From a phage: 64,000 nt of DNA. Made by a program: the position numbers and the translations under genes. Under the pieces are notes generated by a model. The model did no database searches. It saw only the letters and a program-made list of their open reading frames with translations, and was not told the origin of the DNA. The stretch lies in sequence record PZ154896.1. One strand, 5' to 3'. Below, in pieces: positions 9,560-30,018 of the stretch. Each line of letters begins with the position of its first letter. Position 1 is the stretch's first letter.

Positions 9560-10030
9560 TTAATCATGTTTCCACACCCCATCGGTATTTGACCAAAGTC
9601 GCTGATTATCTGATCCTCGCCACAGCTTTTTAGTCGGAAGATTTTTCTCGTACTTCCCATCAATAATAACATCAACATATTTAAGCATTTCTAGTTGTTT
9701 AATATCTTCAAACTTATATCCTGTCCACAACCAAATGCTTTTATTGGGATAAAGATTTTTTACTGTTTGAACGATGCAATGAACAACATCTCTGTTGTCA
9801 GGATAGAGAGGGTCACCTCCGGTTATAGTCAATCCTTCTATATAATCATTATTCAAACATTCAATTAATTGTTCTAGTGTCTCTCCAGTGAATGGAATGC
9901 CATTTCTAGCATTCCATGTTGATTTATTATAACACCCTTCGCATTTATGCAAACAACCTGTAACGAAAAGAACGACCCTGCATCCAGAGCCATTCACAAA
10001 ATCGCAGGGATAAAATCTATCGTAATTCAT
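9560..10030 (-). CDS. nrdG: anaerobic ribonucleotide reductase activating protein (radical SAM)
   Basis: 156 aa; CxxxCxxC cluster (CLHKCEGC); overlaps nrdD stop. Confidence 0.88.
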   Translation of the reverse strand: MNYDRFYPCDFVNGSGCRVVLFVTGCLHKCEGCYNKSTWNARNGIPFTGETLEQLIECLNNDYIEGLTITGGDPLYPDNRDVVHCIVQTVKNLYPNKSIWLWTGYKFEDIKQLEMLKYVDVIIDGKYEKNLPTKKLWRGSDNQRLWSNTDGVWKHD

Positions 10031-11844
10031 TGGTGTTTAACCCTATGCATGATTTCTTTATTTTTACCGAGATTAAATCCGCGTTCGTTCGGATTTCCCA
10101 AATAACCGCATGTTCTTCTTATAGTATTCATCTTTTTAGGATCAGTTTCTCCACAAACTGAACAAACAAATCCGTTTTCAGTAGGAGTCATTTCATGAGT
10201 ACTTCCGCATGTAAAACATTTATCTACTGGCATATTAACACCAAAATAATCTAAATGTTGCGCAGCATAATCCCATACAGCCTCAAGACCTTTTAGGTTA
10301 TTTTTCATATCAGGAAGTTCAACATAAGAAATGTGACCGCCTGTTGCAATGAAATGATATGGGGCTTCGCGAGAAATCTTTTCAAATGGAGTAATATTTT
10401 CTTCTACTGAAACGTGGAAACTGTTAGTGTACCAGCCTTTATCGGTGACATCTTTTACACTTCCATATTTTTCTGTATCAAGTTTACAGAAGCGATAACA
10501 AAGGTTTTCAGCAGGAGTAGAATATAAACTAAAAGCAAATCCAGTTCTTTCAGACCACTGTTTAAGATGAGCATTCATTTTAGTTAAAATTTCTTGTCCA
10601 ATATCACGACCGACAAGAATATTCAATTCGTGAATACCAATGTATCCCAAAGACACTGAACTTCTACCATTTTTAAATAACTCAATTATATCGTCATCAG
10701 GTTTAAGACGAACCCCGAATGCACCTTCTTGGTAAAGAATAGGAGCTACAGTTGCTTTAACACCCTTTAAAGAACTAATTCTACACATCAAAGCTTCAAA
10801 ACACAGATCCATTCGTTCATTAAATAGCTCAACAAATTTCTGTTCATTGAATTGTGTTCCAATATAAGAATCTAATGCAATACGAGGAAGATTCAGTGTT
10901 ACAACACCAAGATTATTACGTCCATCAAGAATTTCATTACCAGTCGAATCTTTCCATACACTCAAGAAACTACGACAACCCATTGGAGAAACAGGAATAG
11001 ATGAACCGGTGATAGCTTTATTATTCTTAACTGAAATAATATCAGGATACATTCTTTTGCTTGCACACTCTAGAGCAAGCTGCTTAATATCATAGTTCGG
11101 ATCATCTTTATAAAGATTAACACCTTCTTCAACAAACATAACAAGTTTAGGAAAAATAGGAGTTATCCCATCGCGTCCAAGGCCTTTAATACGATTTTTC
11201 AGAATTGCTTTCTGAATCATTCGTTCAGCCCAGTCAGTTCCCATACCAAACGTAATTGTTACAAAAGGCGTTTGTCCGTTTGAACTAAAGAGAGTATTTA
11301 CTTCATATTCATAAGCTTGGAATGCATCGTATACGTCTTTTTCTGTTTTAGATTGGGCATAATTCAACGCATCAGCGATTTGCCATTTTTCTGCATCTTC
11401 AACATGTTTAGCGTATGTGCGTTTAACATAAGGAGAAAGAACTTTATCGACATTCGCAAATGTAGTTCCGCCGTACTGGTGTGAAGCAACCTGTGCGGTA
11501 ATTTGTGCCATAATTGCAGTAGCAACGCCAATAGATTTAGGCGTTTCAATTTGAGCATTACCTAGCTTAAATCCATTCTCAAGCATCCCCTTTAAATCGA
11601 CTAAACAGCAATTAGTAAATGGAAGAGCAGGAGAATAATCAATATCATGCATGTGAATGATTCCGCTTTCATGCGCATTCATAATAAAAGACGGGACCAT
11701 ATTTTTGGCAATGTGCTTAGACACAATACCAGCCATAAGGTCCCGTTGAGTTGGAAAAACACGAGAATCTTTATTAGCATTCTCGTTCAAAAGATCTTTA
11801 TTAGTTTTATGAATTAATCCTTCAATTTCTTTTTCAATTTTCAT
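10027..11844 (-). CDS. nrdD: anaerobic ribonucleoside-triphosphate reductase
   Basis: 605 aa uninterrupted; C-terminal zinc ribbon CxxC...CxxC and glycyl-radical region (TCGYLG). Confidence 0.9.
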   Translation of the reverse strand: MKIEKEIEGLIHKTNKDLLNENANKDSRVFPTQRDLMAGIVSKHIAKNMVPSFIMNAHESGIIHMHDIDYSPALPFTNCCLVDLKGMLENGFKLGNAQIETPKSIGVATAIMAQITAQVASHQYGGTTFANVDKVLSPYVKRTYAKHVEDAEKWQIADALNYAQSKTEKDVYDAFQAYEYEVNTLFSSNGQTPFVTITFGMGTDWAERMIQKAILKNRIKGLGRDGITPIFPKLVMFVEEGVNLYKDDPNYDIKQLALECASKRMYPDIISVKNNKAITGSSIPVSPMGCRSFLSVWKDSTGNEILDGRNNLGVVTLNLPRIALDSYIGTQFNEQKFVELFNERMDLCFEALMCRISSLKGVKATVAPILYQEGAFGVRLKPDDDIIELFKNGRSSVSLGYIGIHELNILVGRDIGQEILTKMNAHLKQWSERTGFAFSLYSTPAENLCYRFCKLDTEKYGSVKDVTDKGWYTNSFHVSVEENITPFEKISREAPYHFIATGGHISYVELPDMKNNLKGLEAVWDYAAQHLDYFGVNMPVDKCFTCGSTHEMTPTENGFVCSVCGETDPKKMNTIRRTCGYLGNPNERGFNLGKNKEIMHRVKHQ

Positions 11845-26049: not shown

Positions 26050-26508
26050 CTAGATTTTAATCACTGCTTTAGAAGCTTTTCCTGGTAGTCGTTTACTGTT
26101 AATAATAGCCATTCTGCATTGAAGAGTCTTCATTTTGAATGCTGGATTTTCGCGACAAACTGTAAGTCCTAACCAAAGATTTCCATCAGTTATTTCTAAA
26201 CGGCCTGGGCGATATTCGACACCTTCGACAAAATCTTCATCAACATCCGGACGTGCCGGCATTGATAAAAATTCTGCAACTTCTTTAACATGATTTTTTA
26301 CTTTACGAAATAATTCAAAAACGTAGTTCTCATCTATTTCTCTCTGGATGGCACGATCTAAGAGATGTTGAGAATACTTGATATGAAAGCCTGGTAGCCC
26401 AAGAGACTTTGCAGCATCTTTTACACCGGCATTTATTTTGCGGAACTCCGTTTCAAAGATTCGACGGAGTTTATTACGGCGGATAAAAACGTCAGAATTG
26501 ATAGTCAT
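26050..26508 (-). CDS. regB: endoribonuclease RegB
   Basis: 152 aa; near-colinear by recall with T4 RegB (MTIN...FIRRNKLRR...EYRPGRLEITDGNLWLG...). Confidence 0.9.
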   Translation of the reverse strand: MTINSDVFIRRNKLRRIFETEFRKINAGVKDAAKSLGLPGFHIKYSQHLLDRAIQREIDENYVFELFRKVKNHVKEVAEFLSMPARPDVDEDFVEGVEYRPGRLEITDGNLWLGLTVCRENPAFKMKTLQCRMAIINSKRLPGKASKAVIKI

Positions 26509-26570: not shown

Positions 26571-26786
26571 TTATTGATAAAATGGAGTTAAAGCCCAAGA
26601 TTCTTTAGATACCATATCGGCGAAATGCCTCATCTCTTCGATTTGGCGACGACGTTGGTCAGCATAGTCTTCTTCGCCTTCTTCCTTACAATCTTCAAGG
26701 TCTTCTTCAAGATACTTTAAGTATTCACTACAAATTTTGTTGACCTTTTCTTGAAAGTCCAATAACCCAGTAATAGTAGAAGCCAT
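26571..26786 (-). CDS. hypothetical acidic protein (vs.3 position)
   Basis: 71-aa ORF. Confidence 0.45.
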   Translation of the reverse strand: MASTITGLLDFQEKVNKICSEYLKYLEEDLEDCKEEGEEDYADQRRRQIEEMRHFADMVSKESWALTPFYQ

Positions 26787-27052
26787 TAGTATTTTTCCTC
26801 AGGTCGAAATACTGCACGACATGCCCACATGCTGGCTTCTTTTAGATGTTGCTTAGCATACTTAAGAGCCTGCACTGCATCCATATCTTCTTTGGTTTGT
26901 TGCTCTGATTCATTTTCTTTCAAGATATATGCTTCTTCAATCAGAGCATCAAACATCAATCCAAGACGGACTTCTGCATCTTTAATAGCGTTCACTTTAC
27001 TGATTTTATCATCGGTATGCGGCTTGTAGCCTTTGATGTCTTCAATCGACAT
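26786..27052 (-). CDS. small protein at vs.4 position (candidate Acb2-like cyclic-nucleotide sponge)
   Basis: 88 aa from MSIEDIKGYK; assignment by synteny (regB, vs.3, vs.4) only. Confidence 0.35.
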   Translation of the reverse strand: MSIEDIKGYKPHTDDKISKVNAIKDAEVRLGLMFDALIEEAYILKENESEQQTKEDMDAVQALKYAKQHLKEASMWACRAVFRPEEKY

Positions 27053-27266
27053 AAGGAATTTCCTCATCGGTGGCAAGGTCATATTCGACCAATTGGATAG
27101 GCTCATTAATATCATATCCGCGTACAGTGATATCGGTTGACGGATATTTTCCAGTAATATCACCCGTTCTAAATGCTTCAATGAATGATTGCTCGCCTGA
27201 GCAACCAAACCAGGCGGCAAAACATTTTAAAACATCTTCAGACCCTTCTATAATCAATTTAGCCAT
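27042..27266 (-). CDS. hypothetical acidic protein (vs.5 position)
   Basis: 74-aa ORF. Confidence 0.45.
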   Translation of the reverse strand: MAKLIIEGSEDVLKCFAAWFGCSGEQSFIEAFRTGDITGKYPSTDITVRGYDINEPIQLVEYDLATDEEIPYVD

Positions 27267-27628
27267 TATAGACTCTCAGTAAAGGTACGAGCTATAACGT
27301 CGCGCTGTTGTTCTGGAGTCAGAGAGTTAAAGCGAACTGCATAACCAGATACACGGATGGTCAGCTGCGGATATTTTTCAGGATGCTTAACTGCATCTTC
27401 CAGAGTTTCACGACGCAGAACGTTAACGTTCAGGTGTTGACCACCTTCAATTTTAACTTTAGGTTGATGTTCAATTTCAATTTCACGGGCATTCAAACCG
27501 TAGAAAATTTCCGGGTCTACAATAGCGTCTTCTTTAAAAGTCTTAGAGACGATAATCCGGGCTTGAGTACCATCTTCAAAATAAATAGTGCCTTTATGTG
27601 CACCTTCAAGAATTTGATATGCTTTCAT
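27266..27628 (-). CDS. autonomous glycyl-radical cofactor (GrcA/YfiD-like)
   Basis: 120 aa; C-terminus carries glycyl-radical motif RVSGYAVRF and matches recalled E. coli GrcA/PFL C-terminus. Confidence 0.8.
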
Positions 27629-27634
27629 ATAACC

Positions 27635-27943
27635 TCAATTAGAAAATAAATTTATCCAAGTTTTTTCTTTAATCAAAAATGGGTCGGAATTAAACGCCAT
27701 TAAACTTTGGGTGATTAATCCCTTAAATGGCCCATCAATAAATTCCATTTTGAAATGCGGAATACTAGTCATCAACCGTGCATTAGGAGCAGTACAAAGA
27801 ACCTGTTGACCTGCGAACGGACCTTTAGTCAAACGATATCGTTTAGGTTTAAAATGGTAAATCTCGTAATTTTCTACAAGAGCCCTTTTATTGCATACTG
27901 GGCTGTTATAACAATACTCAAAAACTTCAATAGTGGTCATCAT
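27635..27943 (-). CDS. hypothetical protein (vs.7 position)
   Basis: ORF trimmed to MMTTIEVF. Confidence 0.4.
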   Translation of the reverse strand: MMTTIEVFEYCYNSPVCNKRALVENYEIYHFKPKRYRLTKGPFAGQQVLCTAPNARLMTSIPHFKMEFIDGPFKGLITQSLMAFNSDPFLIKEKTWINLFSN

Positions 27944-28479
27944 TGCATTCCAATCACAAAAAATTGAGGACGAGCAATACCGCCGATGCAATATTTGCTT
28001 TTGCAGCAGTGCTGTACTGATTTAATATGGACATTGTAAATCTTATCCATATCAGGAGCTTTAATAGGCTCGTCAATTATATACAGAATACGAGAAAGCG
28101 TTAATCCACGGAATTTAGAACCTTCATTACCAATAAAACTACGGACAGAATCAGTAAATAAACGGAATCGAATATCATCGCTAGAATAACGAGAAAATTC
28201 TTTTTTAATGTTGCCAGCAGAAATTTTAGCATAAGCTGAAGTATTAGAAAGAACAATAACTGTTCCACCATCGAGCAGCCAATTAGCGGCAAAATTAGTT
28301 ACTGCAGTTGATTTACCAGATTGTCTGCCACCATCTAAACGAAGTGTACAGTACTGCTTGAGTACGTCTTCAAATGGTGGGGCATAACCGTTCTTACAAA
28401 TTTCTTCTACTCTAGCATCAGAATGGTGTGTAAAAGCATTCATCAGGGATAGATAAGGTCCAGTTAAAAATGTTCTCAT
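27940..28479 (-). CDS. small P-loop NTPase
   Basis: 179 aa; Walker A GGRQSGKST and Walker B ILYIIDEP. Confidence 0.5.
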   Translation of the reverse strand: MRTFLTGPYLSLMNAFTHHSDARVEEICKNGYAPPFEDVLKQYCTLRLDGGRQSGKSTAVTNFAANWLLDGGTVIVLSNTSAYAKISAGNIKKEFSRYSSDDIRFRLFTDSVRSFIGNEGSKFRGLTLSRILYIIDEPIKAPDMDKIYNVHIKSVQHCCKSKYCIGGIARPQFFVIGMQ

Positions 28480-28652
28480 TTAGTTTCTCTTAAGGTTGGG
28501 GCCATTCCGTGGCACATGTTAGGTCCTTCGACTCGCTATGTAAACCCATTACCGCACTTGGGCTCGACCTTATTACAGGTTGGAAAAGGTACATCACTTA
28601 GAAGACTCGAGGTTCATAAGGAGAGGTTGCGTTTCCCTTTATTAGGCAAGAA

Positions 28653-28982
28653 TTATACTCTAGGCTTTTGAGCTTGTTTGGTATTGGATTCCCATGCGGC
28701 TTTGGTAATTTTGTTAGCGGCATAACCAAAGGCATTAGATAGAACACCTTTAGAGTTGAATACATCCAATCCAATAAGTACACCTGCTGTGTTAAATTTA
28801 GGAGCAAAGTACGCATTAGTTTTAGAAAGAGCTTTTTTCAATTCAGGGTCTTGAACCAAGCCATCAAAAACGCCTTTACCATTTACTTTATATGTTACTT
28901 TGGGATTTTTAGCTTCTTCGATAGCAGCTTTCTGTTCCGCAGATAGTGTAACTTCAGTAATAAATTCTTGATAGGTTTTCAT
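28653..28982 (-). CDS. internal-protein-like capsid-targeted protein (IP family)
   Basis: starts MKTYQEFITE (capsid targeting sequence, IxE cleavage motif); 109 aa. Confidence 0.65.
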   Translation of the reverse strand: MKTYQEFITEVTLSAEQKAAIEEAKNPKVTYKVNGKGVFDGLVQDPELKKALSKTNAYFAPKFNTAGVLIGLDVFNSKGVLSNAFGYAANKITKAAWESNTKQAQKPRV

Positions 28983-29043
28983 TTTGTTCTCTCTAGGTTT
29001 AGACCATTCCATGGCCCATGAATTGTCCATTTTCCGTATTTAC

Positions 29044-29093
29044 CACTCCAAGTAATTATGAATATACTATCACAATTCTAGGAGAAAGTAAAC
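29044..29093 (-). promoter_or_regulatory. PeSL-like early promoter cassette
   Basis: rc: GTTTAC, CTCC/GGAG inverted repeat around TAGTAT. Confidence 0.5.
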
Positions 29094-29095
29094 TG

Positions 29096-29398
29096 TTATT
29101 TACCTTTAATTACTTTAGCTGCTTCGATAGCCGCTTGCTGAAGGTCGTCCATAGACATACCGAATTTAGAAGCAAAGTTATCAATTTTCTTTTCGACCGC
29201 ATTCAAAGGCTTGGCCTGTTTACCTTCATTAGCGCCTGGAAGAGCGAGAATACGCTCTTTGTCAATATAAAGGCTTACAAGTTTCTTACGGTCTTTATCG
29301 GACAAATCATGAAATGAATGGGCCTTTTTATTTATAGCGGCTTCTAATTTACCTGCGCTCACTCGCGCTTCAGTAATAAATTCTTGATATGTTTTCAT
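29096..29398 (-). CDS. ipII: internal protein II-like
   Basis: 100 aa; starts MKTYQEFITEA; size matches T4 IPII. Confidence 0.6.
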   Translation of the reverse strand: MKTYQEFITEARVSAGKLEAAINKKAHSFHDLSDKDRKKLVSLYIDKERILALPGANEGKQAKPLNAVEKKIDNFASKFGMSMDDLQQAAIEAAKVIKGK

Positions 29399-29439
29399 AT
29401 GTTTCCTTTAAATGTAAATAGGCCTAAATATAGGCCTTA

Positions 29440-30018
29440 TTAATTACCACGGGCTGCATTAGCAACGGCATAAGCGTACTGAACATTAGCGTCTTTAAAC
29501 GTACCTTTAGAGGTATCTATTTCTGCCTTAAAGCCGCCTTTAGCCATAACATCGGCAAATTCTTTACGGAAAGCCATTGCATCAAGACCTTTCCATGATG
29601 ATTTGTGCTTGGCGAATTCAAGACCAGCGTAGTTGACAGCCTTAGCTAATTTATTATCAATAACCCATTTACCGGCTTTAGGCACAAACTTCGGTCCTTT
29701 TTGTTTAGAGAACAGTTTTAAATTCCAGCGACGAAGATCACTGTCGGCTTTAACAAAAGCTGCATCTAAGTTACTAGCAACAACATCTTCAATATGAGCA
29801 AATTTAAGTCCGTCAACTTCAATATTTAGATCGTTACGCCAGCGAAGTCCTTCCCAAGCGAAGGCTTTAAAATCAGAAGCTTTTGTGGCTAGATATCGTT
29901 CAAGTGGAGCAGTTTTAGGGTCAAAGCCGTTTCCGCCACGATAAGTCCACTCGTCCTTATTAATGCCTTGAGCTTTTCCTGCAAAGGCCTCGGCGATAAA
30001 TTCTTTATATGTTTTCAT
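29440..30018 (-). CDS. ipIII: internal protein III-like
   Basis: 192 aa; starts MKTYKEFIAEA; size matches T4 IPIII. Confidence 0.6.
   Translation of the reverse strand: MKTYKEFIAEAFAGKAQGINKDEWTYRGGNGFDPKTAPLERYLATKASDFKAFAWEGLRWRNDLNIEVDGLKFAHIEDVVASNLDAAFVKADSDLRRWNLKLFSKQKGPKFVPKAGKWVIDNKLAKAVNYAGLEFAKHKSSWKGLDAMAFRKEFADVMAKGGFKAEIDTSKGTFKDANVQYAYAVANAARGN

Follow-up and report, generated by a model that had tools for sequence, protein, structure and literature searches.

The Mosigvirus ortholog of T4 vs.6, a GrcA-like gene with a host-like radical-domain half

The ORF at 27266–27628 on the minus strand of the phage DNA analyzed here (record PZ154896.1; the window, meaning the whole stretch of 64,000 nucleotides) is, judging by its sequence and its place in the gene order, the Mosigvirus ortholog of phage T4 vs.6, whose product is called Y06I in UniProt and in the older literature. 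Our overall explanation, which we hold to be very probably correct, is that its 120-residue, 13.8-kDa product serves as a spare radical domain for the host pyruvate formate-lyase (PFL) and is activated by the host activase PflA. The gene itself is a mosaic, in which a host-like 3' half follows a phage-like 5' half. The original prediction, made from the letters of the DNA, had called this ORF a GrcA/YfiD-like spare-part protein; the ORF boundaries were exact, on the minus strand, and the family assignment held in comparisons with both profile models and solved structures.

As a gene identification this is nothing new: the T4 ortholog was characterized in 2001, and the gene is annotated routinely in hundreds of phage genomes. 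Small spare-part proteins were described by Knappe and coworkers in Escherichia coli (YfiD) and in T4 (Y06I), and these two, the founding members, are also the only ones to have been validated biochemically (PMC8683613, JBC 2021). In that article's account of Wagner et al. (2001, BBRC 285:456), the PFL activating enzyme puts a glycyl radical on either protein and O2-cleaved PFL is restored. It has further been reported that the radical passes from Gly102 of GrcA to Cys419 of PflB, and that PflB carrying G734A makes formate in vivo when GrcA is present (PMC12338860). A T4 omics paper and a review of T4 transcription make no mention of vs.6, and our literature search found neither a phage-focused study of the autonomous glycyl radical cofactor nor any vs.6 mutants followed during infection.

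Family assignment and orthology

The ORF divides into an N-terminal half of codons 1–60 (27449–27628, minus strand), which was aligned with E. coli GrcA and with T4, and a glycyl-radical domain of codons 61–120 (27269–27448, minus strand), which was delimited by Pfam and by comparison with E. coli grcA and which coincides with the Escherichia grcA-like DNA tract described below. Pfam PF01228 (Gly_radical) matches residues 60–101 at E = 2e-18 and 67 bits, relative to a cutoff of 22. The best NCBIfam model is TIGR04365 (autonomous glycyl radical cofactor GrcA, spare_glycyl), which covers residues 18–120 at E = 5.8e-47; its equivalog cutoff is narrowly missed, with 159.1 bits against 170, because the N-terminal half has diverged, but no other NCBIfam model comes close to matching as well. 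In comparisons with solved structures, E. coli GrcA ranks first (PDB 6owr; E = 2e-42, residues 21–120 against 27–127) and PflB next (PDB 1h16; E = 3e-26, residues 57–120 against PflB 696–759). The match to GrcA is far beyond chance.

Residues 61–120 are identical at all 60 positions to residues 68–127 of E. coli GrcA, and 49 of 64 residues (77%) are identical to PflB 696–759, the core around Gly734 being wholly common to the two proteins. The RVSGY motif, seen in the sequence and in the alignments to 6owr and 1h16, lies at 27341–27355 (minus strand), and the GGT codon at 27344–27346 specifies Gly95, the counterpart of GrcA Gly102 and PflB Gly734. The original prediction had stated a match of the last 60 residues to the glycyl-radical domain of GrcA and PFL, RVSGY included, and had proposed aligning the C-termini; the match was borne out and the glycine of the motif is conserved. 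The peptide that it quoted is present except for its first letter, which should be Ile60 (KIEGGQHL), the V given there being the E. coli residue.

The N-terminal half is much less like that of the host protein, with 19 of 60 residues identical to E. coli GrcA in a MAFFT alignment, but homology to GrcA extends into it: the HMM and phmmer alignments reach residues 18–21, and the blocks ARxIVxKxxFxED and RE(V/I)x(V/I)E are conserved. E. coli GrcA (YfiD, P68066) is likewise a small stand-alone protein, longer than the phage protein by seven residues, and both are presumably activated by PflA and act on PflB. GrcA is, however, a host gene, whereas vs.6 stands in an early-region gene block of a lytic phage and not beside host genes.

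That the protein might itself be a pyruvate formate-lyase was considered and ruled out. Such an enzyme has a catalytic barrel of some 700 residues in a protein of about 750, with Cys418 and Cys419 at its active site, whereas Vs.6 has neither barrel nor a single cysteine among its 120 residues; lacking the active-site cysteines, it cannot be a formate-lyase. The model for formate C-acetyltransferase (TIGR01255, 744 positions) is matched only over positions 679–744, with 89.6 bits against a cutoff of 994. Many GenBank phage records name the 120-residue protein "pyruvate formate-lyase", "2-ketobutyrate formate-lyase" or "putative formate acetyltransferase"; these labels are mis-annotations, because only the last ~65 positions of TIGR01255 are matched. 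Nor does the protein belong with the short GrcA2 and GrcA3 proteins (NF008341 and NF038360, ~80 residues). Those models match its radical half (1e-27 and 5e-31), but it scores far below their cutoffs (96 vs. 145 bits and 107 vs. 158 bits, respectively), and GrcA2 and GrcA3 are without the N-terminal extension of ~50 residues that Vs.6 has.

The prediction also stated, rightly, that T4 carries a homolog: vs.6 (Y06I_BPT4, NP_049730, annotated as GrcA) encodes a protein that is likewise 120 residues long, has the same RVSGY, and is 93% identical (112/120). Seven of the eight substitutions fall in the N-terminal half, where 53 of 60 residues are the same, and one falls in the radical domain, at residue 73, which is R here, as in E. 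coli, and H in T4. T4 Vs.6 shows the same split between a phage-type N-terminal half and a C-terminal half of GrcA type; a similar N-terminal motif is found in other phage genera. The protein is 100% identical to that of Mosigvirus phage SF (YP_010096332; autonomous glycyl radical cofactor GrcA in RefSeq), and phrog_1209 is matched over its full length (positions 1–121 of 121, E = 9e-63). The gene order denV-...-vs.8-vs.7-vs.6-vs.5-vs.4-vs.3-regB is that of T4 and of phage SF, and in T4, too, vs.7 lies upstream and vs.5 downstream, with overlapping stop and start codons.

Megablast with the vs.6 DNA matched 795 phage records. The highest identities (98–98.6%) belong to Escherichia phages, among them S143_2 and SF (Mosigvirus), and in several of these the gene is annotated as autonomous glycyl radical cofactor. 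By tblastn, homologs are present in 1589 phage records, which include Straboviridae infecting Escherichia, Shigella, Klebsiella, Yersinia, Citrobacter, Kosakonia and Aeromonas, T5-like Demerecviridae (Salmonella, Escherichia, Providencia) and an Erwinia jumbo phage. The genomic position is kept within the Tevenvirinae and is different in Krischvirus and the T5-like phages. In these other phage groups, GrcA-like genes lie elsewhere, adjoining nrdC.11 or tRNA genes (Krischvirus kaaroe, L089 292–708; T5-like S131, L090 301–669; Providencia phage PSTCR5, L091 1–513), and their N-terminal regions are longer or different, the kaaroe protein having 138 residues and that of PSTCR5 more than 170, with a hydrophobic stretch. 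Such differences in position and N-terminus suggest several captures or N-terminal remodeling.

A host-like 3' half

At the DNA level the two halves of vs.6 have different affinities. The 3' 183 nt, stop codon included, are 95.6% identical to E. coli grcA, with eight differences, and the same stretch is 98.4% identical in T4 and 99.5% in Tequatrovirus OES_C-2; the first 180 nt, by contrast, are only ~50% identical after codon alignment. Codon identity counted among identical amino acids alone shows the disparity too: 10 of 19 in the N-terminal half against 52 of 60 in the C-terminal half of the window gene (Fisher p = 0.0035), and 8 of 18 against 57 of 59 in T4 (p = 2e-6). The change sets in abruptly at codon 61, where the disordered half of GrcA gives way to the structured one. 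Base composition changes as well, from 35% GC in the 5' half to 46% in the 3' half, in a window of 37% overall; E. coli grcA has 49% GC in its 3' half. Among 50,697 phage records, blastn with the 3' 183 nt of E. coli grcA matched 1511, 639 of them at 95% identity or more, whereas its 5' 201 nt matched none.

Conservation of the protein is not enough to account for this. Citrobacter phage Margaery encodes the same 60 residues using only 34 identical codons of 60, so protein conservation alone does not suffice for the DNA identity of the tract in the window and in T4. When grcA genes of 81 bacterial species were compared, the nearest to the 3' halves of the window gene and T4 vs.6 was that of Escherichia (95.6% and 98.4%, respectively), followed by that of Citrobacter (89.6% and 91.3%). 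Citrobacter grcA is itself 92.9% identical to the E. coli gene (codon identity 78%) and Salmonella grcA 84% (59%); the phage tract is closer than both. The bacterial genes show no such discontinuity between their N- and C-terminal halves, which makes the phage the receiving side. The most economical interpretation is that, in Tequatrovirus and Mosigvirus, the radical-domain half was captured or overwritten from grcA of the Escherichia lineage, in one or in repeated events, and that this took place relatively recently, after that lineage split from Citrobacter and Salmonella; the 5' half is proposed to be older phage sequence. Overall, the pattern points to the radical domain having passed from host to phage relatively recently, by transfer or gene conversion.

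That the 3' half generally tracks the host genus was considered and dropped, the pattern being clear in the sample compared only for Escherichia phages of Tequatrovirus and Mosigvirus. The best bacterial matches for phages of Klebsiella, Kosakonia, Citrobacter, Erwinia, Salmonella and Providencia are only 75–90% and are not host-specific. Codon identity to E. coli is 35–63% in Jiaodavirus, Slopekvirus, Winklervirus, Krischvirus, the T5-like phages and the Erwinia jumbo phage, and no clear host-specific donor was found for these genera. EC.W14-2, a 116-kb record with a 3' half that is 98.9% E. coli-like, was considered as an independent conversion in a T5-like phage and rejected, since the record is that of a Tequatrovirus. 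Separately, five E. coli records matched the phage gene in the 95–99% band, none of them over at least 80% of the gene; these are presumably shorter alignments, limited to the part of grcA that is conserved at the 3' end, and not phage DNA in the assemblies. The mosaic was not described in the literature that we searched, a body of work to which Wagner et al. (2001) does not belong, and the sharply bounded host-like 3' half is the one mildly new element here.

A 3' half that is almost host-identical in DNA, and host-like in GC, could also mean that vs.6 is a recently captured host fragment carried as a neutral passenger with no selected function. We regard this as extremely unlikely. All eight differences from E. 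coli grcA in the 3' half are synonymous and none is nonsynonymous, a sign of purifying selection, to which the homologs in 1589 phage records also point. An intact reading frame with a Shine-Dalgarno sequence is packed tightly between the neighboring genes, and no frameshift, stop or loss of Gly95 was found among the 11 phage genes compared. The wide distribution across Straboviridae, T5-like Demerecviridae and a jumbo phage, and the synteny across Tevenvirinae, likewise speak against a passenger, as does a 2006 comparison of T4-like genomes in which the Gly_radical match of vs.6 was present in 6 of 6 (PMC1524935).

Gene context and the anaerobic reductase

The signals around vs.6 are those of a gene in a closely packed block. 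A putative Shine-Dalgarno sequence, GAGG (27633–27636, minus strand), precedes the ATG by 4 nt, and the TGA stop of vs.7 (27635–27637) overlaps it. At the other end, the vs.6 TAA and the ATG of vs.5 (27042–27266, minus strand, placed by the T4 and SF gene order) have base 27266 in common in the sequence TAATG (27264–27268). Both junctions (27633–27637 and 27264–27268, minus strand) would be tight coupling signals. The gene is flanked on both sides by separate genes and is not fused to the catalytic barrel of a glycyl radical enzyme. A promoter or terminator of its own was considered and rejected: a scan for sigma-70-like promoters gave 11 sites relative to 11.1 expected, with none convincing upstream of vs.6, and a regular-expression search of 27500–29500, minus strand, returned no MotA-box middle promoter. 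Most simply, vs.6 would belong to a longer transcript of the early region. An antisense ORF inside the gene (27308–27649, plus strand) was taken as spurious.

Several neighbors deserve brief comment. The vs.4 homolog, which lies two genes downstream of vs.6 (26786–27052, minus strand; 88 residues), matches Pfam Acb2_Tad1_hairpin at E = 3e-17, and we take it to be the counterpart of T4 Vs.4/Acb2, an anti-CBASS cyclic-nucleotide sponge. The ORF list extends it to a TTG at 27220, but the 88-residue form beginning MSIEDIK agrees with the length annotated in phage SF. Further downstream, regB (26050–26508, minus strand) was placed by the T4 and SF gene order. On the other side lies the 179-residue vs.8 homolog (27940–28479, minus strand; phrog_1488, unknown function), which has a Walker-A-like motif (GGRQSGKST) and weak, sub-threshold Pfam matches of P-loop type (Terminase_6N, E = 0.0036; AAA_14, E = 0.0071). 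Beyond it, three consecutive minus-strand ORFs (28653–29030, 29096–29398 and 29440–30018) have a common leader, MKTY(Q/K)EFI(T/A)E, which in the first begins at an internal Met. The leader presumably resembles the capsid-targeting leader of T4 internal proteins; the 100-residue ORF of the three is annotated as an internal virion protein in phage SF.

The original prediction had also coupled vs.6 to nrdD and nrdG as joint support for glycyl-radical enzymes in anaerobic infection. Both genes are indeed in the window, nrdD, for class III anaerobic ribonucleotide reductase, at 10027–11844 (minus strand; PF13597, E = 1.9e-171; PF01228, E = 1.4e-25) and nrdG, for its radical-SAM activase, at 9560–10030 (minus strand; PF13353 (Fer4_12), E = 6e-48, and PF04055 (Radical_SAM)), but the connection is thematic only, as ~15 kb and many genes lie between them and vs.6. 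A literal form of it would be that Vs.6 is a spare part for the phage NrdD, activated by NrdG and replacing an NrdD radical domain cleaved by O2. The shared window speaks for it, and NrdD and Vs.6 both match Pfam Gly_radical and have an oxygen-sensitive glycine radical site (of the T4 Gly580 type in NrdD); moreover, the 2006 comparison speculated on a role of vs.6 in nucleotide metabolism (PMC1524935), and reviews allow that glycyl radical enzymes besides PFL may have spare parts (the 2026 review discussed below; PMC8683613).

The sequences, however, do not bear this out, and we consider it highly improbable. BLASTP of Vs.6 against the window NrdD gave nothing significant (E = 9.9), and in the best local alignment (NrdD 530–605) just 6 of 28 residues are identical and the glycines are unaligned; the spare-part idea for NrdD was rejected on this basis. 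NrdD has RRTCGYLG as its radical site, with a Cys-rich CxxC...CxxC stretch before it, and a different activase, NrdG; the radical domain of Vs.6 is 100% GrcA and 77% PflB. The Vs.6 domain being of PFL/GrcA type and unlike NrdD, complementation of NrdD, which the prediction had offered as one possible check, is therefore not expected to work. The distance between the genes also counts against it, as does T4 Y06I, which is reported to work with PFL and the PFL activase (PMC8683613). A connection through metabolism rather than through protein contact is possible. In fermentation, formate comes from PFL. The electron donor of T4 NrdD is formate (PMC4390871), and a link to Vs.6 from PFL via formate to NrdD can be inferred.

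Predicted role during infection

Vs.6 as a spare radical domain for host PFL thus remains our preferred explanation, and its steps can be set out as follows. The host radical-SAM activase PflA would remove hydrogen from Gly95, the glycine of the RVSGY loop, and the radical domain, with its 60 residues of host GrcA sequence, would dock into a host PFL that had lost its own radical domain through O2-dependent cleavage at Gly734, or that was otherwise inactive. The docked radical would then be handed on to PflB Cys419. The N-terminal half would be the form that the PFL-binding and activation aid of GrcA has taken in the phage lineage, and one benefit to the phage may be that formate is kept available as the reductant of its class III RNR (NrdD). 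That the window protein, like T4 Y06I in vitro, is activated by the PFL activase and rescues cleaved PFL is inferred by orthology, and a benefit to the phage in vivo is likewise a prediction. Because the phage encodes no PflA, function would depend on the host enzyme staying active after infection.

The N-terminal half is where the phage and host proteins part company, and in E. coli GrcA this half governs binding to cleaved PFL and the efficiency of activation (PMC8683613); the diverged Vs.6 could therefore differ in degree. A stronger proposal would be that Vs.6 is a decoy or hijacker, competing with GrcA or PflB for PflA, or occupying PFL, and so throttling or redirecting host fermentation. 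Its 41 differences from host GrcA over the 60 aligned N-terminal positions, in just the region known to control PFL binding and activation in E. coli, would suit such a role, and modified copies of host proteins are common in phages. Yet we judge it very unlikely: the catalytic half is identical to the functional host domain, radical glycine included, which an inhibitor would not need; according to PMC8683613, the T4 ortholog restores PFL activity in vitro; and no evidence of inhibition was found.

The mosaic also allows a bolder reading, which we consider rather unlikely. Repeated host-to-phage conversion may keep the radical half nearly identical to host grcA in strictly lytic T-even phages, while the conserved, phage-specific N-terminal half may have gained an adaptor role: it could win PflA or cleaved PFL from host GrcA, or tie the repair of PFL to the formate supply of NrdD.

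Vs.6 is a clean case of a lytic phage with a repair module for an enzyme of host central metabolism, and its mosaic gene is a small, well-bounded case of sequence flow from host to phage. The mosaic also marks the N-terminal half, the role of which in E. coli GrcA is still called "enigmatic" in a 2026 review that otherwise gives the same spare-part account, as an independently evolving part in phages.
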